Assembly (NCBI GenBank): GCA_944325785.1
Contig: CALVBN010000001.1
Span: forward strand, 441,002 to 505,001
Direction of reading: 5' to 3'
Origin: Candidatus Gastranaerophilales bacterium
GTDB taxonomy: Bacteria; Cyanobacteriota; Vampirovibrionia; Gastranaerophilales; Gastranaerophilaceae
Length of the DNA stretch: 64,000 nt
In this document: in pieces, positions 9,559 through 48,375 of the stretch
Numbering within the stretch: position 1 is the first letter of the stretch
How the letters are laid out: each line of letters opens with the position of its first letter
Position numbers and translations under genes: made by a program
The notes under the pieces: generated by a model
Databases searched by the model: none
What the model was told of the DNA's origin: nothing
Seen by the model: only the letters and a program-made list of their open reading frames with translations

Positions 9559-11368
9559 GCTTTTTCTCCTTCTGCGATTGCTGAACCTGCGGAGATTGAG
9601 TTATTACGACTTCTTTTTTTACCGGCTTAAATATACTTTCCGTCAAAGTGCCTAAATAAGTATCATTTAAATGTGCATAATCAAATATAATTATCCCGCT
9701 CAAACAATACCTTCTTGATGCATGAATCTGCTTAATCAAATCTGACGCTGAGCCGTTCATAAAAGTAACAAAAAGTCCTGCGTACAATTTGGTGCTTGAA
9801 GATTTGTTTCTCAATATCTCTTCCATCAAATTCATCGCAGTTCTGTCGTCGCATGTTAAGAACAGAGGAGTAAAACCATCGACAAAATTATTCATAGACC
9901 AGGTTCGCCAATCCTGCAATTTTGTATTTAGTGCAACAGCTCTGTTTGGGAATATCACAGCTGTCAAGACTACATTATTATACCTGCACAAATGGCTTAC
10001 TCTTCTTACAAAGTTCGTAACCTTATTACACCTGTAGAATTTCCACTGGAACCACATCGGATCTGATGGTCTTATGGTTATAGGATCGATACCATATGCA
10101 TTTTTAAATTCTGTTCTTGCATATTTTGTATAGCCCCAGCTTGACAAATCGTAATTCGGGTATGTTGCATCTAAAGACTGCGGATATCTTATGTAATCCA
10201 AATTAATCCCGTCCGGCTTATATTTAGTAATAATTTCTGACAACAAAGCATACAAAAAATTCTGAACATCAGGATTTGCCGGATCAATAAAATAGCCGTT
10301 GTGTTCTGAAACTGAGTACGCTATAGTATCAGATTCAGCACTTCTTTTCGGACAATTCGCCCATTGAGGTTTCTTAGCCAGAATATACTCCGGATTTGTT
10401 TCCGGCGATTTATTTCCTACATAAAATGTTTCAAACCAGATATGAACTTTCATACCTCTCTTGTGTGCTTCATTTATCCAAATTCTTAATGGATCAAACC
10501 CTGCAAAATCTTCATTTTGTTTTATAAATCCATACCTTGCCATTGTTTGGGACGGAAATATTGTTTTGCCGTGATAGTAGGTTTCTACAAAAATATTATT
10601 TATACCTGAATCCGCAAGGCGTGTAACAACCCTTTCTATATCTTTAGGACTATAAAAAGCCGGCCGAATCCATACCCCTTTCAACTCATTTGCATCATAT
10701 GGTACTACTGTTGACATTGCCAAATTAGCATATTCTATAGCCCTTGATGCATATTTCTGAGAATCCTCTGTATTTTTCTGTGCCTTATTAATATAATCCT
10801 GAGCCTTTGCTATATTTTGCTCTGTACGTTTTTGATTATAGCTTGAAGCATTCTGAACATAATATAGCATCATATTCTGAACTTCTTTTATTCTTTCTCT
10901 TGCTGTATACAAAAATGTATCGGATGTAATATAAGAAGTTATTATTTTTTTATTCAAATCAATGGAAACCTTAGCCCCCACCATAATATTTTCATTTATC
11001 CATTTTTTTGCCTGTCCGTGACCGCTTATTACAATACCGTTTGCAGGTATAAGCGAATCTGCACCGCTTAGGGAAGTAACTGTATCACCGATGACAATAG
11101 CCTCAGTTCCGTACTCATTGGTATTAGTACGGTAGCCGAAAGCCGGTGTATATACAACAAGCTGGTTTGTTCCTCTCAAGCCCGGGTAGTTTATCCCTTT
11201 CCAGTTGGTGCTTGCTTTAGGGTCAACGACATCTATCTTAAACATTGATTGGTTAAATATAACTTCATTATTTTGGGGAACATACTCTGAATAAACATTT
11301 TGTGCAAACACTGTATTACACAAAAAGAAAAATATAATAGTTATAATAAACCAGACTCTGCTCTTCAT
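9542..11368 (-). CDS. Glycosyl hydrolase-like family 10 (DUF187) secreted protein
   Basis: ELKGVWIRP, IFVETYYHGKTIFPS, AHKRGMKVHIWF, DPANPDV, DGINLDYIRYP; signal-like N-terminus from ATG 11368 (ORF track begins at 11440). Confidence 0.88.
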   Translation of the reverse strand: MKSRVWFIITIIFFFLCNTVFAQNVYSEYVPQNNEVIFNQSMFKIDVVDPKASTNWKGINYPGLRGTNQLVVYTPAFGYRTNTNEYGTEAIVIGDTVTSLSGADSLIPANGIVISGHGQAKKWINENIMVGAKVSIDLNKKIITSYITSDTFLYTARERIKEVQNMMLYYVQNASSYNQKRTEQNIAKAQDYINKAQKNTEDSQKYASRAIEYANLAMSTVVPYDANELKGVWIRPAFYSPKDIERVVTRLADSGINNIFVETYYHGKTIFPSQTMARYGFIKQNEDFAGFDPLRIWINEAHKRGMKVHIWFETFYVGNKSPETNPEYILAKKPQWANCPKRSAESDTIAYSVSEHNGYFIDPANPDVQNFLYALLSEIITKYKPDGINLDYIRYPQSLDATYPNYDLSSWGYTKYARTEFKNAYGIDPITIRPSDPMWFQWKFYRCNKVTNFVRRVSHLCRYNNVVLTAVIFPNRAVALNTKLQDWRTWSMNNFVDGFTPLFLTCDDRTAMNLMEEILRNKSSSTKLYAGLFVTFMNGSASDLIKQIHASRRYCLSGIIIFDYAHLNDTYLGTLTESIFKPVKKEVVITQSPQVQQSQKEKKRGGRK

Positions 11369-16776: not shown

Positions 16777-17577
16777 ATGAAAAAATCCGGATTTACCTTG
16801 GCAGAAGTGCTGATTACTCTTGGTATTATAGGTGTTGTAGCTGCACTTACCGCCCCAGCCTTAGTTCAAAACGCCGGTTCAGCACAAATCGGACCAAAGC
16901 TTGCAAAGGCTGTTTCTACGTTCGAACTCGCTAATCAAAATATGTTGAATGAAAGAGATGCATCAACTATAGCCGCATCCGGTGCAACATCCAGTTATTT
17001 TTCTAATAATGGACCTTTGGTTATAGGCACTCCATCTGCAGAAATGTATTATCTTTCGAATCTTGCAAATTATATGAAAATAAACTATCTGTCAGAAGGC
17101 AATGATGCGAATAAATATTCAAATTTGGTAACAGATTACAATGGTGACGCACTGAGAACTCCAGGGCAAAATCAACTAGGGAACGGAATGGTCATTATAC
17201 AACAGCTAAATCCATTACTACCTCAAACAGCAGTAAATAGTGTTGCATTAGCAAAAGATGGCACTTTGTATGCTGTAAATATACGACCTGATATTATCTT
17301 AAACAGACCAATACTAGGTCAACCCCAACAAGTTACTCCTCCACATATGAGAGGATATGGAACTGTAGTTATTGATATCAACGGCAAAGCTGAACCTAAT
17401 AAAATGGGACGTGATGCTTTTCTCTTTAAACTCATGGCTGATGGTTCATTAACTCCTTATGGCTCCAACGGCTCCTGGGATACAGGTCGTGACAAATGCA
17501 ACGCATCAGAAATTACGACAGGTTACACCTGCGCAGCGTCAATTTATGAAAATAATTTAAAAGTTATTTATCAATAA
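16777..17577 (+). CDS. Type IV pilin / pseudopilin-like protein
   Basis: Prepilin motif G-FTLAEVLITLGIIGVVAALT; two C-terminal cysteines; RBS AGGAGAG. Confidence 0.93.
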   Translation: MKKSGFTLAEVLITLGIIGVVAALTAPALVQNAGSAQIGPKLAKAVSTFELANQNMLNERDASTIAASGATSSYFSNNGPLVIGTPSAEMYYLSNLANYMKINYLSEGNDANKYSNLVTDYNGDALRTPGQNQLGNGMVIIQQLNPLLPQTAVNSVALAKDGTLYAVNIRPDIILNRPILGQPQQVTPPHMRGYGTVVIDINGKAEPNKMGRDAFLFKLMADGSLTPYGSNGSWDTGRDKCNASEITTGYTCAASIYENNLKVIYQ

Positions 17578-34668: not shown

Positions 34669-36654
34669 ATGGAAATTTATTTTTTAGCTTTAGGAATGCT
34701 GTTTGCGGGAGCTTTAGTTTCTGCTGCAGTCAAAGAACAATGGAAATTTAAAATTTGTTCTGTTTTTAGTTTAATTGCATCTGCTATGTTGTTTATACCG
34801 GCAGCTGCAGTTTTATTAACAGGAGGAACTCTCAAGCAGACTGTTTATATGTCGCCTATTTTGGGTAATGTGGAGTTTGTTATTGATCCTCTGTCAGCAT
34901 TTTTTGTAATGGTTATTTCCGTTATGAGTTTATTGGGAACAATATATGCTAACGGATATATGAAACCGTATTTAAATAAAGGAATGAATGTTTCATCACA
35001 TTGTTTCTTTTTAATGATGTTAATTACTTCTATGATTCTGGTTGTTACAGTCCAGAATGCTTTGTTCTTCCTCATTGTATGGGAATTGATGTCACTTTCA
35101 TCATTTTTCCTTGTTATCTTTGAGGGCGAAAAGAAGGAAGTTATTTCAGCTGGTATCAAATATTTAGTTTATATGCATTTGTCTGTAATATTTATTATTG
35201 CAGCTTTTGTTTTACTAAATATTCAATCAAACAGTTTAAGTTTTGCAGATTTTGCAGCTGTATTGCAGAATAATGCAAACCTTGCAAATATAGTTTTCTT
35301 GCTGGCATTTACCGGTTTTGGCATAAAGGCTGGATTTGTTCCGTTTCACAACTGGCTTCCGGATGCCCATCCGGCGGCTCCGAGCCATGTTTCCGGAATT
35401 ATGTCCGGCGTTATGATAAAAACAGGTATTTATGGAATATTGAGAGTTTTGTTATTTGTTGGGACTCCTTCCAAGCTGGTTTCTTATACGGTGCTTATTA
35501 TTTCCGTAATATCTGCTTTATATGGTGTTTTATATGCTATAACCCAGCACGATATAAAAAGACTGCTTGCTTATCACAGTATTGAAAACATCGGAATCAT
35601 CGGCATCGGAATCGGAGCCGGCATGCTCGGGCTTGCATATTCAAATCCGGTAGTTGCAGCTTTGGGCTTTGCTGGAGGTATTTTACATATACTTAACCAC
35701 TCTATATTTAAAGAGCTTCTGTTCTTTGCAGCAGGCAGCGTATACTTAAAGACTCATACAAGAAATATAGAAAAGCTTGGTGGGCTTATTAAAAACATGC
35801 CTTATACAGGTTTGATGTTTATAATCGGTTCTGTTGCAATCTGCGGTTTGCCGCCGTTTAACGGATTTATAAGTGAATTTTTGATTTATGCGGGTATGCT
35901 TCAAGGAGTTCCTGCTTCAGAAATCAATTTATTTATAACATTAATATTTGCTATTGCAGGTCTTGCAATGGTCGGAACAATGGCAATATTATGCTTTACA
36001 AAAGCTTCCGGTATTACATTCTTAGGTAATCCGAGGAGCGAAAATGCAATGAATGTTCAAGGAGATGTTTCAAGAGTAATGATTATACCTATGGGAATTC
36101 TTGCATTTTTGACATTCTTTATCGGAATGTATCCGCAGTATTTTATAGGCGCAGTACTGGTTCCTGTTTTTATGTTTATAAAAAACGAAGCTGTTATGCC
36201 GGTATTTAATTCCGTAATGGAATTAGTCAGTGTATTAAGCTGGTACTTCTTTATATTCTTAATAATGGTTCTTGTATTGTTTGCTTTAAGAGCCGTTCTT
36301 AACAGAAAAACGCAAATTCATAATACATGGGGATGCGGTTATGACAGGGCAAACAATCATATGCAATATACGGCATCTTCTTATGCGGATTTATTTATTT
36401 CTACATTAAAACCGTTATTTAAACGTGTTACTCATATTAAAAAACCTAAGGAATTATTCCCGAAGGAAGCATATTATGAGCTTGAAATTGAAGATATCGA
36501 AGAAGCATATATTGTTAAACCGCTTGTTATGTGGGATGAAAAACTTCTTGCAAAATTTGAAAGAATTCAAAGCGGTAACATTCAGCAGTATATTTTATTC
36601 GGATTAATATTCTTGATATTAGCAATAGTCGGAATGATTTACTTTGGGGGTTAG
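34669..36654 (+). CDS. hyfB: HyfB-like proton-translocating membrane subunit (Ehr complex)
   Basis: WELMSLSS, GIKAGFVPFHNWLPDAHPAAPS, RLLAYHSIENIG, TWGCGY. Confidence 0.92.
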   Translation: MEIYFLALGMLFAGALVSAAVKEQWKFKICSVFSLIASAMLFIPAAAVLLTGGTLKQTVYMSPILGNVEFVIDPLSAFFVMVISVMSLLGTIYANGYMKPYLNKGMNVSSHCFFLMMLITSMILVVTVQNALFFLIVWELMSLSSFFLVIFEGEKKEVISAGIKYLVYMHLSVIFIIAAFVLLNIQSNSLSFADFAAVLQNNANLANIVFLLAFTGFGIKAGFVPFHNWLPDAHPAAPSHVSGIMSGVMIKTGIYGILRVLLFVGTPSKLVSYTVLIISVISALYGVLYAITQHDIKRLLAYHSIENIGIIGIGIGAGMLGLAYSNPVVAALGFAGGILHILNHSIFKELLFFAAGSVYLKTHTRNIEKLGGLIKNMPYTGLMFIIGSVAICGLPPFNGFISEFLIYAGMLQGVPASEINLFITLIFAIAGLAMVGTMAILCFTKASGITFLGNPRSENAMNVQGDVSRVMIIPMGILAFLTFFIGMYPQYFIGAVLVPVFMFIKNEAVMPVFNSVMELVSVLSWYFFIFLIMVLVLFALRAVLNRKTQIHNTWGCGYDRANNHMQYTASSYADLFISTLKPLFKRVTHIKKPKELFPKEAYYELEIEDIEEAYIVKPLVMWDEKLLAKFERIQSGNIQQYILFGLIFLILAIVGMIYFGG

Positions 36655-36656
36655 AA

Positions 36657-37574
36657 ATGATTAGTTTGTTAATAAATATATTAATACTTTTATTTGTGCC
36701 TTTCTTAATGATAGGTGTAATAAAAAAGACAAAAGCCTTTTGGGCAGGACGCAAGGGTGTAAGTATTATGCAGCCGCTGTGGGATTTCTTAAGACTTATG
36801 AAAAAAGATTCCGTTATTAGCGAAACAACTTCATGGGTGTTTAAGTTTGCACCGGTTGCGGGATTTGCTTCAATATTGTTTGCGGCGCTTTTTGTACCGC
36901 TTGTAGCAGGCAAACCGATATTTAATATCCCGTTTGCGTTTGTTGTTTTTTCTTACATTCTCGGGTTTGGCAAATTCTTCTCATTAATTGCCGCTTTAGA
37001 TACAGGAAGCAGTTTTGAGGGAATGGGAGCTTCAAGAGAAGCGTGTTTTTCAACAATTGTAGAACCCGCCTTCTTTATCGGAATGGCATCAATTGCGGCT
37101 TTAAGCCAGAATTATACATTTGAAAGTTTAAGATTGATACTCAAAAACGCCGGAACTTACGGATATTTGATTATTGCATTATTGGCAGTTACTTTGTTTA
37201 TAATGCTTTTAATCGAATGCTGCAGGGTTCCTGTTGATGATCCTACTACACACCTGGAGTTAACGATGATACACGAAGTTATGATATTGGATAACTCCGG
37301 TGCAGATTTAGGCTTAATCACATGGGGTTCTGCAATCAAAATGTTTTTGTTTGAGGCTTTGATTGCAAATCTTATATTGCCGGTATCTTTGCACGGCTGG
37401 ATGGCGCTTGCTGCATTCCTTGCTGTTGTATTTATACTTGCAGTGATTGTCGGAACGGTAGAATCTTCTATGGCAAGATTCAGAATGACCCACGTTTTTG
37501 AATTCATATTCATTATGTCTATTACGGCGCTTATAATACTTGCGCTTGTGACATACAGAATGTACGGCGGATAA
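36657..37574 (+). CDS. hyfC: HyfC/HycD (NuoH-like) membrane subunit
   Basis: LDTGSSFEGMGASRE, ECCRVPVDDPTTHLELTMIHE, ESSMAR. Confidence 0.92.
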   Translation: MISLLINILILLFVPFLMIGVIKKTKAFWAGRKGVSIMQPLWDFLRLMKKDSVISETTSWVFKFAPVAGFASILFAALFVPLVAGKPIFNIPFAFVVFSYILGFGKFFSLIAALDTGSSFEGMGASREACFSTIVEPAFFIGMASIAALSQNYTFESLRLILKNAGTYGYLIIALLAVTLFIMLLIECCRVPVDDPTTHLELTMIHEVMILDNSGADLGLITWGSAIKMFLFEALIANLILPVSLHGWMALAAFLAVVFILAVIVGTVESSMARFRMTHVFEFIFIMSITALIILALVTYRMYGG

Positions 37575-37628
37575 GGCGTGAAGAATACTCTAAAAATGGC
37601 AAAGGATAGACAAAGGAAAATATAGATT

Positions 37629-38336
37629 ATGGAAAATATTTTTATAATTTTATTAGGATTATCAATGATATACATAGCAGCAACAAGCCGTTTGGCAGCG
37701 CATGTTAATATGCTTATTGCGCAGGGCTGGCTGTTGTTCTTTGTATGTTTATCCGGTTTTGCAAAAGAACCATGGTTTAACTGGCATATGATTGCAAGCA
37801 CCGGAAATATTGCAGAAAACATGCCTCATATTATCGGATTTTTGTTTGTAATAGTTGAAACACTGATTGTAAAGGCAATTGTTATACCTGTATTTCTTAA
37901 AAAAGTTTTAAATAAAACACAGGCGCATAGAGATACGGATGCAAATATTCCTCATTTCTATTGTCTTGTTATTGCAAGCATTATCTTATTCGGAGGATTT
38001 CTGGTTGCTAATATAGCGGCTCCGGAATTTAAGATGGTGGACGGAATGTATTTCGGTGTTTCTATTGCAATAATTATTACAAGCTTGTGGCTGATTACAA
38101 TTAAACATAAAGTTTTATCAAATGTTATTGGTTTTATAACAATGGAAAACGGGATTTTTCTTCTTTCCCTTTCTGTAGCTAAAGAAATGCCGATTATTGT
38201 TAATTTAGGCGTATTGCTTGATATCTTTATTGCGGTATTTATACTCGGTATGCTTGTTAATGAAATTAATAACGAATTTGAAGATTTGGAAGTTGCACAT
38301 TTATCAGACTTAAAGGACTACGAATACAATGATTAA
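37629..38336 (+). CDS. hyfE: HyfE-like membrane subunit
   Basis: Hydrophobic protein, IGFITMENGIFL motif; operon position. Confidence 0.85.
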   Translation: MENIFIILLGLSMIYIAATSRLAAHVNMLIAQGWLLFFVCLSGFAKEPWFNWHMIASTGNIAENMPHIIGFLFVIVETLIVKAIVIPVFLKKVLNKTQAHRDTDANIPHFYCLVIASIILFGGFLVANIAAPEFKMVDGMYFGVSIAIIITSLWLITIKHKVLSNVIGFITMENGIFLLSLSVAKEMPIIVNLGVLLDIFIAVFILGMLVNEINNEFEDLEVAHLSDLKDYEYND

Positions 38337-39759
38337 TTTGATTTTATTATTTCCGATTTTAGCATTTATTATATTGTCTTTGTTTAAAAAGAAATTCTTA
38401 AACAATTTGATGATTAATTTGTATGCACTAATACACTTTGCAGTATCAATGGCATTCTGCTTTAATATTGATTTTCTTCCGGCATGGAAAACTTGCAGAT
38501 TTTTTGCGGTAGATGATACCAATAAGATTTTTCTTGCGGTAATGTCAATAGTTTTTCTTGCCGTGGCTGTTTATAATAACGGCTATGTTCAGAAAGAAAC
38601 TTCGCTTACAAAGAAATTAAGACATTATACGTACATGGTTTTATTCTTTGTATTTTCAATGACAGGTGCTATTTTGAGCAGTAACCTTGGTATTTCCTGG
38701 GTATTTATTGAAGGTACAACCCTTGCAAGCGCATATTTGATTTATTTCCACAAGACAAAGCATTCAATTGAGGCAGCGTGGAAATATGTCTTTATATGTT
38801 CAATCGGTATTGCGCTGGCATTTGTCGGTATTATACTTATGACAATCGCAACAGGAAATTTAAATTCATTATTCTACAGCGATTTATATCACAATGCGCC
38901 TTTGTTCAACCACTTCTGGCTGCAGCTGTCATTTGTGTTTATATTGTTTGGTATTGGTACAAAGATGGGGCTTGCGCCTGTTCACTTCTGGCTTCCGGAT
39001 GCTCACGCCGAGGCACCGTCTCCGATATCTGCATTATTATCAGCAACACTTTTGAATTCAGCATTTTTGATGATATTAAATGTGTTTAGAGTTATGGTTA
39101 TAGCAGGCTGTGACGGATATGCCAGAATAATGCTTCTGGTAATGGGGCTTTTGTCATTATTTATTACGGCAGTATTTGTTTATCATATCAATAATTACAA
39201 AAGAATGCTTGCGTATTCTTCTATTGAAAATATGGGTATATTAGCAATAGGTACAGCTTTAGGCGGTGTCGGTATGCTGGCTGCTATGATTCATCTTATC
39301 GGGCATTCTCTAATAAAAGCTTCTTTCTTCTTGACTTCCGGCAATATATTGGAAATATACGGAACGAAGAAGATAAAAGCGGTAACAGGACTGTTAAAAA
39401 CCGACAGAAAAACAGGCTGGCTCTGGATTGCTTCTTTTATCGGCATTGCAGCTTTCCCGCCGTCAGTGTTGTTTATAAGCGAATTTTTGATGGTAAAAAC
39501 ATTGTTTATGCAGAAGCATTTTATCATATGCGCAGTATTTCTGCTTCTTTTAACCATTATCATATATGGTTTAGGAAAGTCTGTTATTAAAATGGCATTT
39601 TCAGCTAATAAAGAAGAACAGCTTCCGGAAAACGCAGGAAAGCTAAGCTGGACAATGTATACTCCTCAGATTATAATGCTTGTTCTTGCATTTGTAATAG
39701 GCATTTACATGCCTATAGGTCTGTCGCAGGCTGTATTAATGGCTGTTGCAGGCTTTTAG
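38329..39759 (+). CDS. hyfF: HyfF-like proton-translocating membrane subunit
   Basis: SIEAAWKY, GTKMGLAPVHFWLPDAHAEAPSP, KRMLAYSSIEN. Confidence 0.92.
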   Translation: MINLILLFPILAFIILSLFKKKFLNNLMINLYALIHFAVSMAFCFNIDFLPAWKTCRFFAVDDTNKIFLAVMSIVFLAVAVYNNGYVQKETSLTKKLRHYTYMVLFFVFSMTGAILSSNLGISWVFIEGTTLASAYLIYFHKTKHSIEAAWKYVFICSIGIALAFVGIILMTIATGNLNSLFYSDLYHNAPLFNHFWLQLSFVFILFGIGTKMGLAPVHFWLPDAHAEAPSPISALLSATLLNSAFLMILNVFRVMVIAGCDGYARIMLLVMGLLSLFITAVFVYHINNYKRMLAYSSIENMGILAIGTALGGVGMLAAMIHLIGHSLIKASFFLTSGNILEIYGTKKIKAVTGLLKTDRKTGWLWIASFIGIAAFPPSVLFISEFLMVKTLFMQKHFIICAVFLLLLTIIIYGLGKSVIKMAFSANKEEQLPENAGKLSWTMYTPQIIMLVLAFVIGIYMPIGLSQAVLMAVAGF

Positions 39760-39762
39760 AAC

Positions 39763-39797
39763 GGGGTAAATAGGGGTAAATAGGGGTAAATGGTAAA
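39763..39797 (+). repeat. GGGGTAAAT-family 10-bp array inside the Ehr operon
   Basis: ggggtaaata-ggggtaaata-ggggtaaatg. Confidence 0.9.
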
Positions 39798-39821
39798 GAA
39801 ATAAAGAAAAGGTGCAATAAA

Positions 39822-41285
39822 ATGAATTGGATAGTAACTGAAAATAATAAAAAGATAAACGCTCTGGATATTCCGGCAGTTTCTATAGAAGAAATAAAAT
39901 CTGACATAGAAAACATGAAAATGCGTGTAGTTGGTTTCTTCGGGAAACAGGAGTATGAAAATGTCCGTTTATATGTAGTAATGGCAGATGATAAAATTGG
40001 TAAATTATATGTAACATCAACAATATTTACTCCTAATATGAAATCATATGAGTCATTCACTCAAAAGTTTCCGGCATTTCATATATTTGAAAGAGAATTT
40101 TATGAAGAGTTCGGCATTGAACCGCTGAATCATCCTTGGCTTAAGCCGGTTCGGATTAATCAAGATAAATACCCCTTCTTTGAAATGCAGGGAGAAGATA
40201 TCCACCAGGTTGCGGTCGGACCTATCCACGCAGGTGTAATTGAACCGGGGCACTTCAGATTTATGTGTCTTGGCGAGAAGGTTTATGATTTGGAAATAAT
40301 GCTCGGATATCAGCACAGAGGTGTTGAAGAACTGTTTTTGAAAAATAAAAGATATAACAACAGGCTTGCTGAATCTGTCTGCGGAGATTCCGTTATTGCC
40401 TACAATATGGCTTATTCACAGGCAATGGAAGCTTTATCCGGAACAGAAATTACTTCCAAAGCTCAAATTATAAGAAGAGTTGCGCTGGAAATGGAACGAA
40501 TTGCAATCCATATTGGTGATATGGGCGCAATTGCAGGTGATATGGCATATTTAATGGGCGCTTCAATTTTTGGTATAACAAGAACGCTGGTAATTAATAC
40601 TATGCTTGAAATTTCCGGAAGCCGTTTCGGGCGCGGATTAATCAATGTCGGCGGTGTTAATTTTGATATAGATGACAAGATGTCTGATAAAATTATAGAA
40701 ATGCTGGATGGTGTAGCAAAAACTGTTGACAGAACAACAAAAGTTATGCTGAAAACTCCGTCCTGCATATCACGTATGGAAAGAACCGGATGCGTAAGTG
40801 CAGAAAATGCCAAAGCACTCGGTGCTGTAGGTATGGCGGCGCGTTCATCCGGCGTTGATATTGATACAAGATTTGATTTTAATGATAAATGGTATACATC
40901 TCTGGATGTTGTTAAACCGTTTAAGGCAACGGGTGATGTACATTCAAGATTTATGCTGAGATATAAAGAGATTAAGCAGTCAATGCAGATTGTCAAAAAG
41001 CTTCTTGCTAAATTGAAAGAATTCAAGTCAGAAGCCATAAAAGTAACTCCGAATAATATGCTTGCGCCGAATTCTTTTGTTATATCAATGACAGAAGGCT
41101 GGAGAGGCGAAGTCGTACATATTGCATTAACAGGAGCTAACGGAGAGCTTCTCAGATACAAGATGAAAGATCCTTCTTTCAATAACTGGTATATGCTTGC
41201 AATGGCAGTAAGAAACAACGGTGTTTCAGACTTTCCGCTCTGCAACAAGAGTTTCAATCTGTCCTACTGCGGAAATGACCTATAA
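39822..41285 (+). CDS. ehrL: Ehr large subunit (HycE/HyfG-like, NuoC+NuoD-like) lacking NiFe ligands
   Basis: FEREFYEEFG, VGPIHAGVIEPGHFRF; ESVCGDS replaces RxCGxC; C-terminal SFNLSYCGNDL replaces DPCxxC. Confidence 0.88.
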   Translation: MNWIVTENNKKINALDIPAVSIEEIKSDIENMKMRVVGFFGKQEYENVRLYVVMADDKIGKLYVTSTIFTPNMKSYESFTQKFPAFHIFEREFYEEFGIEPLNHPWLKPVRINQDKYPFFEMQGEDIHQVAVGPIHAGVIEPGHFRFMCLGEKVYDLEIMLGYQHRGVEELFLKNKRYNNRLAESVCGDSVIAYNMAYSQAMEALSGTEITSKAQIIRRVALEMERIAIHIGDMGAIAGDMAYLMGASIFGITRTLVINTMLEISGSRFGRGLINVGGVNFDIDDKMSDKIIEMLDGVAKTVDRTTKVMLKTPSCISRMERTGCVSAENAKALGAVGMAARSSGVDIDTRFDFNDKWYTSLDVVKPFKATGDVHSRFMLRYKEIKQSMQIVKKLLAKLKEFKSEAIKVTPNNMLAPNSFVISMTEGWRGEVVHIALTGANGELLRYKMKDPSFNNWYMLAMAVRNNGVSDFPLCNKSFNLSYCGNDL

Positions 41286-41307
41286 AAATAAGTGAACAAA
41301 ATTTCTT

Positions 41308-41339
41308 ATTCACTCAGTCACTTAATCACTTAGTCACAT
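41308..41339. repeat. 8-bp TCAC-core tandem repeat
   Basis: attcactc-agtcactt-aatcactt-agtcacat. Confidence 0.75.
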
Positions 41340-41357
41340 TCAAAGAGGTAATTTAAA

Positions 41358-42098
41358 ATGTTAGACACTATAAAATTAAAATATTTTCAAGGAAACCAAT
41401 TTATACCGGATATTCCAAATGCGCCGATGCGCAGTCAATTTAGAGGTTTTCCTATATTAAAAAAATGCGAAGGATGCACTCTTGATGAGTCAATCTGCCC
41501 GACAGGAGCTTTAAAAGCAAATCCGCTTTCTATTGATATGGGCAAATGTACACTCTGCGGAGAATGCAAATGCGAAGCTGTACAATTCAGTAATTATTAT
41601 AAACTGGCATCAACTGACAGAAATAAATTAATAGTTACGGAAGATATGACTCCGGAAGAGTTTGCAAAAACTGCAATTGAGGCAAGAAAGGAAATAAAGA
41701 GAGTCTTTTCTAAATCACTTAAATTAAGACAGGTTTCTGCTGCAGGCTGCAACGGCTGTGAAATGGAATTAAATGCCTGCTCAAACTGCAACTTTGATAT
41801 GGGCAGATTTGGAATAGACTTTGTTGCATCCCCAAGACACGCGGACGGGATAGTAATTACAGGACCGATTTCAGAAAATATGGCATATGCTCTTGAAGAT
41901 TGCTACAAATCCACTCCGGATCCTAAGATTGTAATCTTAGCCGGAGCATGCGCAATCTCCGGCGGTGTTTTCCAGAATTCATCAAAACTTAACAGGGAAT
42001 TTCTTGAAAAGTACCCGATAGATTTGTATATCCCGGGCTGTCCTGTTCATCCGCTTACATTCATTAACGGAGTGCTTGATTTTATATCAAAAAAATAA
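41358..42098 (+). CDS. ehrS: Ehr small subunit (HycG/NuoB-like) fused to a ferredoxin-like domain
   Basis: CEGC...CPTGAL...CTLCGEC; AGCNGCE, ASPRHAD, GACA, IPGCP. Confidence 0.9.
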   Translation: MLDTIKLKYFQGNQFIPDIPNAPMRSQFRGFPILKKCEGCTLDESICPTGALKANPLSIDMGKCTLCGECKCEAVQFSNYYKLASTDRNKLIVTEDMTPEEFAKTAIEARKEIKRVFSKSLKLRQVSAAGCNGCEMELNACSNCNFDMGRFGIDFVASPRHADGIVITGPISENMAYALEDCYKSTPDPKIVILAGACAISGGVFQNSSKLNREFLEKYPIDLYIPGCPVHPLTFINGVLDFISKK

Positions 42099-42135: not shown

Positions 42136-42786
42136 TTATTGATTGTTTTTCATTACAATTTTTAATTCAACCCTCCGGCTTTTATCAAAGTCCTCTTTGC
42201 CGTTGACTAAAACCGGACTTGAATAGCTGGCTCCTTCAACTATAATCATTTTACGGAGTTTATCGCCGTTAGATTTATTATACGGGGTTCCTGTCATATA
42301 ATTGGCAACTTCGTATGCCCGCTTAAGGCTTAGTTCCATATTTTTCATATACTGCTCATCTGCAGAGAACTTCCCTTTGAAGGTTTGGGAGTCTGTATGC
42401 CCTTGAATTATTATTTTGGCAACATTTTTGTTCAAGTAATCATTTGAAAACAGGGAATTAAAATATGCAGGAGCAAATTTGTCCAGATACTTTCTTCCTT
42501 TGTCAGAAAGTTCATAACTGTTTACATTAAAAAGCTCCAAATCAGAAATTTTAACGACGCCAGCTTCGACTTTTGCATTAATATTCTGGTTTTTAAGCGT
42601 TTCCTGCAAAGCTTTTGAGGCTCTGTCCTGCTCTAGTTTACTCTGTATTTTTTCATACGAACTTGTTACATAAGTATAAAAAAACAGGACAATAAAAACC
42701 AAGACTAAGGCTGTCATTAAGTCAGTCATTGTTATCCAGAATATGTTATTTTCTCCGCTGTCTTCTTTGTGCCGTTTTATGTCCAT
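42136..42786 (-). CDS. ZorB/MotB-like protein (N-terminal TM plus OmpA-like peptidoglycan-binding domain)
   Basis: FWITMTDLMTALVLVF with conserved Asp; IIQGHTDS, NMELSLKRA, SRRVELKI. Confidence 0.88.
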   Translation of the reverse strand: MDIKRHKEDSGENNIFWITMTDLMTALVLVFIVLFFYTYVTSSYEKIQSKLEQDRASKALQETLKNQNINAKVEAGVVKISDLELFNVNSYELSDKGRKYLDKFAPAYFNSLFSNDYLNKNVAKIIIQGHTDSQTFKGKFSADEQYMKNMELSLKRAYEVANYMTGTPYNKSNGDKLRKMIIVEGASYSSPVLVNGKEDFDKSRRVELKIVMKNNQ

Positions 42787-42795
42787 AATTTTTCT

Positions 42796-43680
42796 TTAAA
42801 ATAATTTATCTACAATGTCGCCTTGTGAGGCTTTTGTTGTCGTTTCATTAAGTTTATTCAAACTGTACAGAATATTTTCCAGATACGGAACCGTTGTTTC
42901 TCCGAGGCTTTTTGCAACCGCTTTTGCAAAATTTTCCGGCAAAGCCTTTAAGAGCTTTTCATTTACCGCATTCTGGAGTTTTGATTCTTTAACAAGGTCA
43001 ATCAGGAACTTTTCGCTTGTTACGATATCAAATAATCGTATAAATTCTTTCTGTATTGCTAGATAGTATTTTTTACATTTGCGGTTATAAACAATTTTTT
43101 CAATAAACATAAATAACAATGAAAAACCGACTGCAAACACTGAACACAACGCCGCAACCTGTATATTAGAAATAAGTCCGTTCAGTGAGTTTCCTATGCT
43201 GTCATCAATAGTAAAGTTTATTGCAGAAAAAGCTACTGCCATTTTTAAGAATGTAAAAAACGGACCGAGTCCTGTTAAAAGTGTCGGCATTATTTGTATA
43301 AATTTGTGGTTAATTTTTGAATAAACAATAGTTTCTTCGTTAAAGAAGAATGAAGCGTCTATAGTCAGATATATTTCCGGCTTGTAATCGCCTGTCGATT
43401 TGGTATTTTGGGATGCAAGGTATAATTTTTCCGGAAATATTAATGCTTTTTTAAAGTCCTCCCAGGCTGTTGCAGTATAGCTGTTTGAACTCATAAACTC
43501 ATCAAGTTCTTGAAAGCGGTATGACAGTTCTTTTTTGTTCAATGATTTTAAGAACATACACACAGAATTGAGATTCTTCTCGACTTTTGAATAATTTCTC
43601 AAAACCGTCATTATAAAAAACAGGAAAAAAACTGTAATAATAAGAATTGCAGGTTCTGTTACAATTTGAATAAAGCTCAT
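42796..43680 (-). CDS. ZorA/MotA/ExbB-like membrane protein with short tail
   Basis: AWEDF...FFFNEE...IMPTLLTGLG...SLLFMFIEK; three hydrophobic segments; ATG 43680 preceded by GGAGGG (ORF track begins at 43758). Confidence 0.8.
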   Translation of the reverse strand: MSFIQIVTEPAILIITVFFLFFIMTVLRNYSKVEKNLNSVCMFLKSLNKKELSYRFQELDEFMSSNSYTATAWEDFKKALIFPEKLYLASQNTKSTGDYKPEIYLTIDASFFFNEETIVYSKINHKFIQIMPTLLTGLGPFFTFLKMAVAFSAINFTIDDSIGNSLNGLISNIQVAALCSVFAVGFSLLFMFIEKIVYNRKCKKYYLAIQKEFIRLFDIVTSEKFLIDLVKESKLQNAVNEKLLKALPENFAKAVAKSLGETTVPYLENILYSLNKLNETTTKASQGDIVDKLF

Positions 43681-43737
43681 GTTTTCCCTCCTTATAAAGT
43701 ATAGCATAATAGAGCATTTTAGGCTATAATTTTCACT

Positions 43738-46700
43738 ATGGAATGTCCGAAGTGTCATAAAAATATTTCAGAAGAGGAAACAGTTTGTCCGCACTGCCAT
43801 AAAGTTTTGGCTCTGGAATGTCCTAACTGCCATAGTCTAAGCCAATCGCCCGTATGTGAAAAATGCGGATACATTATTCTGATAAAATGTTCCAAATGCG
43901 GGAGAATGGTGCCGACAACAAAAGATAAGTGCAAATGCAGTTTTGAAATCAGAAACAGTATTGCATATCAAGAATGCGAAACAGACGAATTTGCCTCCGT
44001 AATTGTTAAGTTTGAGGCTTTGAAAAATATCAGAAGGGTTCTGGGTTCGCAGGAGCTGTTTTCTAAATTTTATTTTCGGTTAAGAAACCTTTTGACGGCA
44101 CAGTTAAAATCTGCAGATGCTGTAATAATAACATATAACGATACTATTGAAGTTAATATGTGCAAAGAACTCTCCTTTGCAACCTCTGCTAATAAAGCGG
44201 TAAGGCTTGCGCTGAAAATCGCCAATGCTTTTGCAGGATTAAATTCTAAAGTTATAGAGGAGCTTGCAACGCCGTTAAGATTGAATATTACTATCGCCCA
44301 AAAAACTTCGGACAAACTTCTGGAAGAAACCAGAATTGCTTCTAATGTAAAACTTCTGGCGGTAAAAAAGGATGAAAAAAAGTTCTTAAAAGGTATGCAG
44401 ATAGTTCTGGATCAGTTTGTCTGGGATAATGTCAACAAGGAGTATAAAACAGACTCTTTGTACTCTATAGAGCAGGACGGAAGCTCTGTAATGCTTTATG
44501 AAATTCTCCTTGATAACTATGTTCTGCCTCCTTCAAGCAACAATGAGGAAGATACTGTTAATACTCTAAAACCCGCACAGAATGCTATAGCTAAAGATAT
44601 TCCCAAAACAGATGATATATATTCCTTTAAAGTTTTTGACATAAACGCAAAGTGCAAGTTTTATAAAGTTACGGCTGAGGATTTATTAAACAAACTCGAC
44701 AACAGCAGAATTACATCTGTAAGAGGAGCGCAAAATCTTGAAATAAGATTGTCAGAGCTTGTTGAATATTATGAATCTAAAGGGAAGAAAGTTGTACATG
44801 CTGTTTGTACGGAAGAAGCCAATTACCGCCCCTGGGGTGTAATGGAGCAGTTATTTAAAGATTTCTACGGGCTTCCGCGGTGTAATTCTTTAATACCTAA
44901 AGAATACGATGCAAAGAGGTTTAATGAAATCCTTAATCTTATACTCGGCAAGCCAAGAAAAGCGTCTGCGCCGGAGGATGCCAGATTTGCGTATATGGAA
45001 GATTTCGGCCTGTTCCTTACAGGACTCAAAAATTGTGTTGTTATTATAGAATCTTTTGAATATATGGATGACACATCCATACAGACTTTGGAGCTGTTTT
45101 TTGACCGGTTTAAAAAATTAGATACAAATTTTGTATTCATTACGGACAGCGAATGTGCTTTGCATTCAAAAATAAAAGGGCTTTTAAGAACTCCTCTTTA
45201 TTCAGAGTATTCTCTCCAGAAAATCAGTATGGATACAATTCTTTCTTCTCTCAAGGAAGAAGCAGGAGATTTCATACAATCATTCTATTTTGAAAAAATA
45301 AAAGAATATTTTGACGGTTCGCTTCTCTATTTCGATAATGCTTTAAGATATTTAACAGAGAAGAATATTCTTATTAATTTTGAAGGCAGACTGCTCATTA
45401 AGAGCAATAACTCGGTAATTCTGCCTAAAACATTGCAGGAGCTTTTGAAAGCCAGATTGAAATGTCTTGGAAAGCAGGCTGACGCTTCATTAATTCTGGC
45501 GTATTCAACCCTGCTGGGAGCAAGAATTGACTTTGAAACTCTTAAACTTCTTGGAATAACGGAGCCGGAAAAGTCCGCTAAAATTCTGTATGAAGCAGGA
45601 TTTGCAAGATACAATGATAAGGCTGTGTATGTTAATAATTTCAATCTGGTAAAACCAGTTATAGAATCCTCTTTAAAAAAAGAAATAACAGAGTTTTTGT
45701 GCAAAAATATCCTTGCGAAACTTTCCAAGGGGCTTGATGATACAACAACGCTTTTGATTTTCGGCAAGCTCTCGTTTTTCAAAGAAGAATATCTGCTTCT
45801 TTGGAGAAACTCGCAATTTGCGATGAATACAGGTGATTTTGATGCATATTTGAAAAACTGCCTGGGATTTCTTTCATTGATAGAATATATTGACAATAAT
45901 ATTCCGGCAGAAGACATAGAAAATAATAAGAAAGAAGTGTATCAGAATATTTTAATGTGCCTGTACGGCTATTCACCGGAAAAAATATATTCCATAGAAA
46001 ACGTTTTGCTTATGGACGCAATTAAAGATAACGATAATGAGCGTATTGTAAAATTATCAAATTTAATGCTTCAGGGCGCTTTAATATCATCTAATTATAC
46101 AGACGCATTAACGCTTCTTCACAATATTTTGACGCGTATGCCGAATCCGAAGCTTATAGTTGACGGAGCTGTCAATACTAAATTTCTGCTTCTGTCGCTT
46201 GTAAATATAGAAATACTATTCAATACAGGTGATTTTGAACAGTGCGCAGAAGTGGCATCAGAATTGCTAAGCGTCCTTAAACCGGAAATTGTTGAAAAGA
46301 TAAAGCCTGCAAGTTTTTCAATAAGTTTATTTATAGAGCATTTGTATGAAACATTTAGGATTGCAGGGTTTGCTAAGCTTTTCTTGATGGATGACGGGCT
46401 GGAAGAATTCTTTGAACAGATAAAAACCGCGCTCGGAGAGAACCTGCCGGATAAAGAGTGTATACTGGCTGTAAGAGATTTTATCGGCGGAAAGAGCTAC
46501 GCAGTTTCCAATATTGAAAACTCTTCTGCTTTTTCTAAGGTTATTTACCTTATCCTGCAGGAGTTTAATGAGCATAAGCAGGATTATAAAACTTTTGCGC
46601 AGAATATTTATCAGGCAAAACTGCTTGCATCTGATATACACCAGACCCAGCTGGAATTGTTCTGCGATCTTTTGATTGCATACAGCTACGCCAATATCGG

Positions 46701-47037
46701 AATTAAGCAGAAAGCAGAAGCCATATACAGTGATATTCTTGAAAAAGCAGAGAATTCAGCAATATTTAATATTCTTGCTCTTGCAAAATATTTCATAGCA
46801 AAACTAAAAATATCAAATAACGAGATAGAGGAAGCATTGTTAATAATAAATGATACACTCGCCTTGCTTCAAAAATACGCCAACCAGTCAAAAATTATCT
46901 ATGTAATGTTTGAAAAACTTTTTGTCGATATTGTCAAAGATTATGACATATCAGCGGTAAATATTGAATCAGAAGAGCAAAAACTAGCTCTTGCAGTTTC
47001 TGACGGCAAATTCAGCCGTTTAATCCAAAACACATAA
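43738..47037 (+). CDS. Multi-zinc-ribbon / cyclase-like / degenerate ATPase / helical-repeat protein
   Basis: CPKC, CPHC, CPNC, CEKC, CSKC N-terminus; cyclase-like ANKAVRLALKI...LRLNI; IIESFEYMDDTS resembles EDLHWAD; helical C-terminus. Confidence 0.75.
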   Translation: MECPKCHKNISEEETVCPHCHKVLALECPNCHSLSQSPVCEKCGYIILIKCSKCGRMVPTTKDKCKCSFEIRNSIAYQECETDEFASVIVKFEALKNIRRVLGSQELFSKFYFRLRNLLTAQLKSADAVIITYNDTIEVNMCKELSFATSANKAVRLALKIANAFAGLNSKVIEELATPLRLNITIAQKTSDKLLEETRIASNVKLLAVKKDEKKFLKGMQIVLDQFVWDNVNKEYKTDSLYSIEQDGSSVMLYEILLDNYVLPPSSNNEEDTVNTLKPAQNAIAKDIPKTDDIYSFKVFDINAKCKFYKVTAEDLLNKLDNSRITSVRGAQNLEIRLSELVEYYESKGKKVVHAVCTEEANYRPWGVMEQLFKDFYGLPRCNSLIPKEYDAKRFNEILNLILGKPRKASAPEDARFAYMEDFGLFLTGLKNCVVIIESFEYMDDTSIQTLELFFDRFKKLDTNFVFITDSECALHSKIKGLLRTPLYSEYSLQKISMDTILSSLKEEAGDFIQSFYFEKIKEYFDGSLLYFDNALRYLTEKNILINFEGRLLIKSNNSVILPKTLQELLKARLKCLGKQADASLILAYSTLLGARIDFETLKLLGITEPEKSAKILYEAGFARYNDKAVYVNNFNLVKPVIESSLKKEITEFLCKNILAKLSKGLDDTTTLLIFGKLSFFKEEYLLLWRNSQFAMNTGDFDAYLKNCLGFLSLIEYIDNNIPAEDIENNKKEVYQNILMCLYGYSPEKIYSIENVLLMDAIKDNDNERIVKLSNLMLQGALISSNYTDALTLLHNILTRMPNPKLIVDGAVNTKFLLLSLVNIEILFNTGDFEQCAEVASELLSVLKPEIVEKIKPASFSISLFIEHLYETFRIAGFAKLFLMDDGLEEFFEQIKTALGENLPDKECILAVRDFIGGKSYAVSNIENSSAFSKVIYLILQEFNEHKQDYKTFAQNIYQAKLLASDIHQTQLELFCDLLIAYSYANIGIKQKAEAIYSDILEKAENSAIFNILALAKYFIAKLKISNNEIEEALLIINDTLALLQKYANQSKIIYVMFEKLFVDIVKDYDISAVNIESEEQKLALAVSDGKFSRLIQNT

Positions 47038-47094: not shown

Positions 47095-47394
47095 TTACTT
47101 ACCGCCGGATTTCTTTTTTTCTTCTTCAGCCTTAGCTTTAGCTTCTACATCAGCTTCTGCTAATTCAGCGCCTTTTACGCCAGCTACAGCACCGATAACA
47201 GCACCTACCGGACCGCCTATAATAAGTCCGCCCAGCATAGCGCCTATAGCACCCAGCCCGATTTTTATTCCGCTTTGAAAGTTAACATTTTGCGGCTGCG
47301 GATTGGTAACAGTAGTTTCCGCTCCCTCATGGCGCAACTGCCTGTTTCTTGCAGTATATAAACCGCTGTTTGCATTGATTGCACTAATTCTCAT
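47095..47394 (-). CDS. Small glycine-zipper protein
   Basis: GLGAIGAMLGGLIIGGPVGAVIGAVAG GxxxG repeats; RBS AGGAG. Confidence 0.75.
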   Translation of the reverse strand: MRISAINANSGLYTARNRQLRHEGAETTVTNPQPQNVNFQSGIKIGLGAIGAMLGGLIIGGPVGAVIGAVAGVKGAELAEADVEAKAKAEEEKKKSGGK

Positions 47395-47730: not shown

Positions 47731-48375
47731 TTGAGTAAAGGCTACGAAAACTTTAATAATATGGAAACTTCCTTCAGAAAATCCACACTAATCCAAGAGC
47801 GCATAGGACTTGTTTCCAGCCATATGTACAAGCAGTTTTTAGATTATCAGCACGCTACTTTGAATACAACAGAAATTTTTGCCGAAATGATAGAAAACCT
47901 TAAAGCGATTGCCGATTCTTTGAAACAGTCTTTTTCTGCCCGTGGTGTTACTACAGAAAATATATATGTGGATTATGACAAGGACAAAACAGTTGTTATT
48001 ATTAATATTCTATGGCATACAATAAGCCTTACTACTCGCTGTAACTATGAACCGCAGGCATTGTTCAGAGAAAGCGCCCCTCCGATGTTTTCCGGAAGAA
48101 TTATGGCAATTAACGGCAATTATAATGAATTGATGGAGGGTATAAACTCAAGGAGCGATATGATGCAGGTTCTGCTTGATAAAGAAGTCGCATCCCTTTA
48201 TGTTCCTGCGGATAAAACGCAGAATTCTATCTTCAAAATCCGCCATCTTGTAAATCGAGAATTTTTCTTGAATTCTTCTGATGCTTCCAGAGAATTTGTG
48301 CTTAAGGTTGTCGAAACCATCTGCGGGGGCGGTCTATACCACGAAGAAGGCTCCAGAAAAAGTTTTAATATTTAA
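47731..48375 (+). CDS. Hypothetical protein
   Basis: 214-aa ORF, RBS AAGGAGG before the TTG start. Confidence 0.8.
   Translation: MSKGYENFNNMETSFRKSTLIQERIGLVSSHMYKQFLDYQHATLNTTEIFAEMIENLKAIADSLKQSFSARGVTTENIYVDYDKDKTVVIINILWHTISLTTRCNYEPQALFRESAPPMFSGRIMAINGNYNELMEGINSRSDMMQVLLDKEVASLYVPADKTQNSIFKIRHLVNREFFLNSSDASREFVLKVVETICGGGLYHEEGSRKSFNI

Follow-up and report, generated by a model that had tools for sequence, protein, structure and literature searches.

A short-tailed ZorAB-type motor pair widespread in Gastranaerophilales and its apparent pseudo-STAND partner

In current models of Zorya, a long ZorA tail is found in all subtypes and is essential for signaling to cytosolic effectors. 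How, then, might a ZorAB-type motor act when nearly all of that tail and all known effectors are missing? This question is raised by a zorA-like/zorB-like gene pair in the genome of a Candidatus Gastranaerophilales bacterium, located in a 64,000-nt stretch (hereafter, the window; positions 441,002 to 505,001 of contig CALVBN010000001.1, assembly GCA_944325785.1). The pair represents a natural ZorAB lineage that, despite these deficits, is under strong purifying selection and is fixed in a large group of human and animal gut bacteria. An initial annotation made from the sequence described an orphan, short-tailed ZorA/ZorB-like motor pair, and the minus-strand two-gene unit and the signatures that it listed (AWEDF, FFFNEE, MPTLLTGLG, SLLFMFIEK, and FWITMTDLM) are all present. 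The features of the pair are as follows.

42796..43680, minus strand: zorA-like gene, 294 aa; three-transmembrane (3-TM) ZorA-type motor subunit that ends after the tail base.
42136..42786, minus strand: zorB-like gene, 216 aa; plug/TM helix with Asp22, followed by an OmpA-like peptidoglycan-binding domain.
42721-42723, minus strand: codon of ZorB Asp22, an invariant residue.
42799..43017, minus strand: cytoplasmic stub of ZorA, aa 222-294; two helices and a disordered C-terminal end, by AlphaFold2 (AF2) secondary structure.
42799-42819, minus strand: D-x-V-D-x-L-F motif, ZorA aa 288-294, in the disordered C terminus.

The open reading frame (ORF) of the zorA-like gene extends to 320 aa from its first ATG. 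Because a strong AAGGAGG Shine-Dalgarno sequence precedes the ATG at 43680 and all homologs are ~294 aa long, Met27 was taken as the start. The zorB-like gene follows on the same strand after a spacer of 9 nt.

Comparison with profile libraries, known structures, and predicted folds places both proteins in the ZorA/ZorB motor family. The PADLOC ZorA1 models match the ZorA-like protein at 1e-25 to 5e-19, with the aligned part of these 630-730-position profiles limited to the first ~250-270 positions, while the PADLOC ZorB1 model PDLC00609 matches the ZorB-like protein over its full length at 1.4e-48. ZorA and ZorB families also rank top in NCBIfam for the two proteins, with all scores under the curated cut-offs (equivalogs NF041794, NF041788, and NF033915: ZorA_2, 86 vs. 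a cut-off of 100; ZorA1, 73.7 vs. 750; ZorB1, 58.3 vs. 400). Homologs of the ZorA-like protein carry the precomputed Pfam label PF28082 (ZorA-like_t1), and the local Pfam copy gave no match of the protein itself to MotA_ExbB (PF01618). Pfam recognizes OmpA (4.8e-8) and MotB_plug (1.8e-4) in the ZorB-like protein, which, together with the invariant Asp22, bears out the earlier description of a conserved aspartate plus an OmpA-like domain. In sequence searches of the PDB, the ZorA-like protein matched Escherichia coli ZorA best (8qyd, 3e-15) and also Shewanella type I ZorA (8vvn), and the ZorB-like protein matched 8vvi_A (4e-11) and 8qyd_F (1e-9); no MotA, PomA, ExbB, or TolQ chain was found at E<=1 with either protein. 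The fold gives the same picture. A monomeric AF2 model of the ZorA-like protein, built on 22 orthologs (predicted local distance difference test score, pLDDT, 74), was matched by Foldseek to E. coli ZorA (8qyd, 6e-11, TM-score 0.62-0.73) and Shewanella ZorA (2e-8), with TolQ, ExbB, and PomA appearing only at E 0.05-0.6. The earlier reading of the first protein as more like ZorA than MotA is thus borne out by PADLOC, PDB sequence, and fold comparisons alike, all of which place it with type I ZorA. In addition, the same genome encodes a canonical MotA/MotB pair (contig C5) and an ExbB-ExbD-ExbD locus elsewhere. Taken together, these comparisons favor ZorAB over MotAB and ExbBD by a wide margin, and the pair is thus not a misread version of either but a third motor of the presumed 5:2 type, belonging to the ZorAB kind. 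By analogy with its relatives, it would be expected to adopt a 5:2 ZorA:ZorB stoichiometry and to undergo ion-driven activation.

The short tail claimed for the protein is real. In the AF2 model, TM1 spans residues 10-46, TM2 125-152, and TM3 with its extension reaches to ~216; only helices 222-246 and 249-283 and a disordered end, 284-294, follow. An exhaustive search of 1.8 billion representative sequences returned about eleven clusters of 292-309 aa at E<=1e-52 and then, below a gap, long ZorAs of ~420-840 aa from 1e-23 downward. Alignments to the long ZorAs extend to residues ~280-293 of the query, which shows that the short protein corresponds to the motor plus the tail base, with about 60-70 aa of homologous tail base retained after the motor. 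In a motor-domain tree rooted with the MotA and ExbB of the source genome, the 22 short proteins form one clade on a long stem (Shimodaira-Hasegawa approximate likelihood-ratio test, 99), nested among long ZorAs, and their sister (support 95) is P0193, a 692-aa ZorA in a canonical type I ZorABCD operon. The short clade thus likely descends from type I Zorya ZorAB by loss of the remaining 300-500 residues of the tail, a derivation that falls short of proof because the basal branching among ZorA lineages is poorly determined in this tree.

No further short-tailed ZorA clade was found among the other short matches: P0199 and P0260 are split zorA genes within canonical zorA-zorB-zorC(EH_Signature)-zorD(SNF2) operons, and P0192 lies on an uninformative 1.1-kb contig. 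Split genes were observed in canonical type I Zorya operons from unrelated metagenomes (L041:3257-5341 and L042:7001-9035), in which zorA consists of a motor ORF of 300-331 aa and a tail ORF of 353-387 aa; these could be frameshifts or genuine two-piece ZorAs.

The distribution of the pair is that of a mostly vertically inherited core gene pair in Gastranaerophilales. Within the genus, 24 of 25 genomes carry the zorA-like gene (65-82% identity), and across the order it was found in 175 of 251 sampled Gastranaerophilales genomes, representing 25 of 53 genera; its product is about 295-310 aa throughout, and it is single-copy in all but two genomes. Outside the order, a 301-genome sample of the phylum contained no match to the short clade, the only match there being a weak one to a 742-aa ORF that is presumably a long ZorA. 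Relative to the nearest species, the ratio of nonsynonymous to synonymous substitution (dN/dS) is 0.02 for zorA, 0.03 for zorB, and 0.05 for BIG1, the divergent neighboring gene described below; these values are approximate because dS exceeds 1, with dN far below dS. Among the 22 orthologs, Asp22 and the GHTDS and SRRVE motifs of ZorB are invariant, as are the TG.GP..TF motif of TM2 and the AA..S..A motif of TM3 in ZorA, and the D-x-V-D-x-L-F sequence at the extreme C terminus of ZorA is conserved in family f1 orthologs. The genes around the pair are housekeeping genes. As the initial annotation had noted, the Zorya effectors are missing: ZorC, ZorD, and ZorE were not found near the pair, and the ZorC-type EH_Signature gave no match above cut-off in the source genome and 40 relatives. 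Because the pair is single-copy, family-wide, under strong purifying selection, and set among housekeeping genes, it does not follow the pattern of a mobile defense island, and this core-gene distribution favors a repurposed or fixed system over such an island.

The description of the pair as an orphan did not hold, as an apparent dedicated partner, which we call BIG1, lies beside it. BIG1 is divergent from zorA and has the following parts.

43738..47037, plus strand: BIG1, 1099 aa; co-occurs with zorAB and lies 57 bp from zorA.
43681..43737, no strand: divergent intergenic region between zorA and BIG1, 57 bp, as read from the sequence.
43738..43947, plus strand: zinc ribbons, aa 1-70; five CxxC pairs (Pfam DZR, 5e-6), the cysteines invariant in 10 orthologs.
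43987..44505, plus strand: class III cyclase-like fold, aa ~84-256, with no conserved metal-binding Asp.
44656..45219, plus strand: STAND/AAA_16-like nucleotide-binding-fold domain, Walker A lost.
45229..47034, plus strand: winged helix and TPR-like repeats, aa ~498-1099; helical repeats in the AF2 model, TPR proteins in Foldseek.

The zorA-zorB unit is intact in all 22 loci taken from different genera, and BIG1 stands head-to-head with zorA in 10 of them. Three of these loci, in genomes G025, G030, and G045, come from three other families and extend the arrangement across the deepest splits of the clade; no further flanking gene is shared there, and ZorA is 38-40% and BIG1 19-25% identical to the proteins of the window. 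Some incompleteness or mild contamination affects several of the metagenome-assembled genomes used (G025 and G045, 7% contamination; G030, 78% complete); the trio of G025 nevertheless lies on a 257-kb contig. A hidden Markov model (HMM) of ten BIG1 proteins, run over the same 251 genomes, matched at E<=1e-233 in 172 of the 175 ZorA-positive genomes, and the best match in any ZorA-negative genome, to a paralog termed BIG2, was 1.6e-100. The presence or absence of ZorA and BIG1 thus agrees in 248 of 251 genomes, in counts taken without correction for the species tree. Moreover, family f6 is split, g47 carrying both zorA and BIG1 and g6 neither, and the three outgroup trios (G025, G030, and G045) form their own clade in the ZorA tree, so that the three genes must have been either lost together or transferred together. 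The recurring adjacency in three other families and the near-perfect co-occurrence show that the suspected link to the neighboring gene recurs and, as comparative evidence, indicate that BIG1 is a real partner of zorAB. Where BIG1 is unlinked from zorAB, no other effectors were found beside it, the neighbors being GlgA-, RuvB-, and aminotransferase-like, as recognized by sequence.

Pfam, NCBIfam, and PADLOC identified only the zinc ribbon in BIG1, with no PADLOC match, and a PDB sequence search returned nothing meaningful; its other domains were assigned by fold. In Foldseek, the AF2 model (pLDDT 79) matched a STAND ATPase with a TPR sensor (6mfv, 8e-10), Avs3 (7e-6), and MalT. Residues ~84-256 matched the class III cyclases Ma1120, Rv1625c, and CyaB (2-5e-4, TMt 0.59-0.68), and the C-terminal half matched TPR proteins such as LGN, anaphase-promoting complex (APC) subunits, and the MalT sensor domain. 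The sites at which such domains would act are degraded. The metal-binding position in β1 of the cyclase-like domain is Lys in the window's protein and K/G/L/D/E/T across orthologs; the Walker A site reads GAQNLEI, the P-loop being lost in 9 of 10 aligned orthologs with a GK remnant only in outgroup L038; and Walker B is degenerate. BIG1 is thus modeled as a zinc-ribbon/pseudo-cyclase/pseudo-STAND/TPR scaffold. The BIG2 paralogs have the same layout and 1228-1287 aa. They are widespread in the order, including in ZorA-negative genomes, and stand beside no stator pair, and the four BIG2 proteins examined keep both Walker A, GxGK[ST], and Walker B (ED).

L046:6775-10638: BIG2, Walker A and B intact.
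L047:6199-9969: BIG2, Walker A and B intact.
L048:6173-9895, minus strand: BIG2, Walker A and B intact.
L049:5907-9593, minus strand: BIG2, Walker A and B intact.

In L048 and L049, BIG2 is preceded by a gene of 193-296 aa and one of 764-775 aa in the same orientation.

How might such a pair work with BIG1? We consider that the chances are about even that the pair derives from Zorya and acts as an envelope sensor or motor, anchored to peptidoglycan, with BIG1 as its signaling route. In this reading, a ZorA5-ZorB2-type complex would reside in the inner membrane, with ZorB anchored to peptidoglycan and an ion channel gated by Asp22. A change in the envelope or peptidoglycan would set ions flowing and make the ZorA pentamer rotate or change its conformation, as in Zorya. 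The short stub and the disordered D-x-V-D-x-L-F end would then relay the state of the motor to cytoplasmic BIG1, most plausibly to its TPR region, and BIG1 would serve as a scaffold or switch and not as a nuclease. TPR domains often bind peptides of this kind, and the docking idea stems from the conservation of the C-terminal motif and its disorder in the monomer model. A physical contact between ZorA and BIG1 is an inferred element of this scheme, as are the kind of trigger and the kind of output. The initial annotation had proposed a variant Zorya-like ion-driven sensor or motor, either coupled to the 1099-aa gene or repurposed for a non-defense role, and the sequence, fold, and comparative data support that proposal.

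Several observations weigh against coupling of the motor to BIG1. G248, G241, and G247 are ZorA-positive and have no strong BIG1 match. The two loci are not adjacent in about half of the sampled genera, and even in the source genus two species have zorAB separated from BIG1. Synteny is generally high in the family, a GlgA-like gene following BIG1 in 12 of the 22 loci, and adjacency therefore counts for little inside family f1. Likewise, the co-occurrence is a raw count made without a species tree, from which independent joint losses or transfers cannot be counted. No nuclease or other effector or output domain was recognizable in BIG1 by library or fold search. On the motor side, all tail truncations in E. 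coli abolish function, so a ZorA that passes its signal with a stub only would need another mode of coupling. Finally, alignment to PDB structures places Asp at Glu86 and Lys at Glu89 of the Ca2+ site, so that one of its two glutamates is not conserved in the window's ZorA.

Four other explanations must be set against this one. The pair could belong to a genuine antiphage system, a further Zorya subtype in which ZorAB would detect phages attacking the envelope and the STAND-like BIG1 would stand in for ZorC, ZorD, or ZorE as the cytoplasmic arm. That type I Zorya proteins are the nearest relatives of both motor subunits, that the BIG1 fold matches STAND proteins including antiviral Avs3, and that the trio travels as a unit in three other families all speak for this view. 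However, the genes are single-copy, family-wide, and largely vertical, with housekeeping surroundings and strong purifying selection, as opposed to patchy islands; BIG1 has no PADLOC match, no Walker A, and no nuclease or killing domain; and the tail required for Zorya defense is absent. We therefore regard a defense function as possible but unlikely. It is, in our view, doubtful that the ZorAB-like pair acts alone or with some other partner, be it in envelope integrity, in ion leakage, or in another such role, with BIG1 merely a clade-specific gene of shared history. The unlinking of zorAB and BIG1 in about half of the genera, the synteny kept even for the unrelated glgA, and the co-occurrence uncorrected for phylogeny would all fit such a history, but the trio is the sole conserved block in G025, G030, and G045, presence and absence agree in 248 of 251 genomes including the f6 split (g47 both, g6 neither), and Walker A is gone in BIG1 while kept in the four BIG2 proteins.

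The two remaining explanations assign the pair to better-known machines, and we consider both very improbable. An auxiliary stator for the flagellum or for type IV pili is suggested by the fact that the source organism is flagellated and by isolated neighbors, namely a flagellin gene after zorB with a nearby cheR in one metagenomic locus and a pilin-like neighbor in G024. These adjacencies do not recur, however, and the topology and fold of the protein are ZorA/ExbB-like, not MotA-like. Indeed, a role as sole or second flagellar stator was rejected because a canonical MotAB exists and because nearly the whole order has FliG (39 of 41 relatives), whereas only 25 of 53 genera have the pair. As for a Ton/Tol-like energizer passing force to an outer-membrane process, the source lineage is taken to be diderm, the 3-TM topology is like that of ExbB and TolQ, and these proteins are the next-best fold matches. 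Yet these matches fall 8-9 orders of magnitude short of those to ZorA, the B subunit is OmpA-like and not ExbD- or TolR-like, an ExbB-ExbD-ExbD locus exists elsewhere in the genome, and no TonB- or TolA-like gene is linked to the pair.

Coupling of the motor to BIG1 could also be taken a step further, to a version that we offer tentatively and hold to be rather unlikely as a whole. In this version, a Zorya-type motor was domesticated as a family-wide core system of envelope surveillance, and the mechanical or ion-driven state change of the motor replaced the nucleotide-cycle switching of a dedicated STAND protein. Equally tentatively, the P-loop of BIG1 would have disappeared once the protein was bound up with ZorAB. 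The assembly would then be a motor-gated pseudo-STAND signaling complex coupled through the stub and C-terminal peptide rather than through the 70-nm tail regarded as indispensable.

Such a minimal system bears on what a ZorAB motor senses, how its state is transmitted, and whether defense motors get recruited for housekeeping signaling. It also opens a first way into the function of a large pseudo-STAND family that lacks annotation in Gastranaerophilales.

The 57-bp region between zorA and BIG1 contains a perfect TATAAT at 43725-43730, 7 nt ahead of the ATG of BIG1, with no visible Shine-Dalgarno sequence; BIG1 may thus be translated from a leaderless mRNA. As only 57 bp separate the genes, each promoter may overlap the opposite gene, that of zorA reaching into the coding sequence of BIG1 and that of BIG1, in part, into the coding sequence of zorA. 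Two small genes lie beyond BIG1. The 214-aa protein encoded at 47731-48375 (plus strand) has no family match in any library but is very conserved (78-89% identity), and throughout the genus its gene remains a neighbor of BIG1, including in the two species in which zorAB has moved. The 99-aa protein encoded at 47095-47394 (minus strand) has a glycine-zipper-like hydrophobic core and a Lys/Glu-rich tail, and it weakly matches PdsO, a sortase-associated OmpA-like protein, in the N-terminal part of the latter (4e-7, a score far under the cut-off).

On the other side of the pair, a link to the convergent Ehr-type hydrogenase-like operon (34669-42098) was rejected because this flank varies even within the genus. 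A 453-aa gene, which we take to be UPF0210/DUF711-like, follows zorB in 10 loci; a functional link was likewise rejected, as it is a ~80%-identical core gene that in the source genome lies on another contig (C7:56456-57814). Proteins of 106-198 aa, in one or two copies, follow this 453-aa gene at C7:56456-58149 and in loci L023, L029, L031, and L036; they do so in many genera, and in those they adjoin zorB. In the metagenomic relative L020, the flagellin gene (9797-10855) lies directly downstream of zorB and cheR (1721-2500) ~5.5 kb upstream of zorA, an arrangement unseen in the other 21 loci. In G024, where zorAB has moved away from BIG1, a divergent 429-aa gene adjoins zorAB (L016:5695-6984), and the N-terminal ~100 aa of its product resemble the product of a pilin gene of the window (16777-17577; 43% identity over 103 aa).

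This short-tailed ZorAB clade was not found described in the searchable literature, and the known systems resemble the locus in different parts. BIG1 shares with STAND/TPR proteins (PH0952-type 6MFV, MalT 8BOB, and Avs3 8DGC) and with cyclase-AAA_16-TPR proteins the order of cyclase-like, NOD-like, winged-helix, and TPR domains. It differs from STAND NTPases in its lost Walker A, degenerate Walker B, five-fold zinc ribbon, and lack of a helix-turn-helix or nuclease effector, and from class III cyclases in that the fold matches but the metal site is not conserved. MotAB/PomAB and ExbBD/TolQR belong to the same ion-driven superfamily as the pair, with a presumed 5:2 stoichiometry and a TM Asp in the B subunit. 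In contrast to MotA, the window's ZorA has no MotA_ExbB match and a 3-TM model rather than a 4-TM topology, and in contrast to ExbBD and TolQR the B subunit is OmpA-like and the fold matches are at E 0.05 or worse.

The closest likeness is to the ZorAB of type I Zorya (E. coli, 8QYD; Shewanella sp. ANA-3, 8VVN), which shares the sequence and fold of the motor, the zorA-zorB order with a tiny spacer, and, in ZorB, the TM Asp and the OmpA-like peptidoglycan-binding domain. The window's ZorA, however, has 294 aa as compared with roughly 420-840 aa and lacks the long coiled-coil tail, and the pair stands without ZorC and ZorD, outside any defense island, as core genes of a bacterial family. It also has Lys at Glu89, NCBIfam scores below cut-off, a new C-terminal motif, and BIG1 as its apparent partner. 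For Zorya types I-III, adjacent ZorC with ZorD, ZorE, or ZorF with ZorG would be expected, whereas the neighbors in the window are the Ehr-type complex and BIG1; likewise, about 70 aa follow the motor here where these types have a long tail. Indeed, each Zorya subtype has a long ZorA tail, and every tail truncation abolishes E. coli Zorya defense (Hu et al., PMC11946911). An engineered tail-truncated E. coli ZorA of comparable length (8QYY, Δ435-729; Hu et al., PMC11946911) assembles in vitro without the full tail, as the natural protein might. Yet the engineered truncations abolish defense, whereas strong purifying selection acts on the naturally short protein, which must therefore function in some other way.

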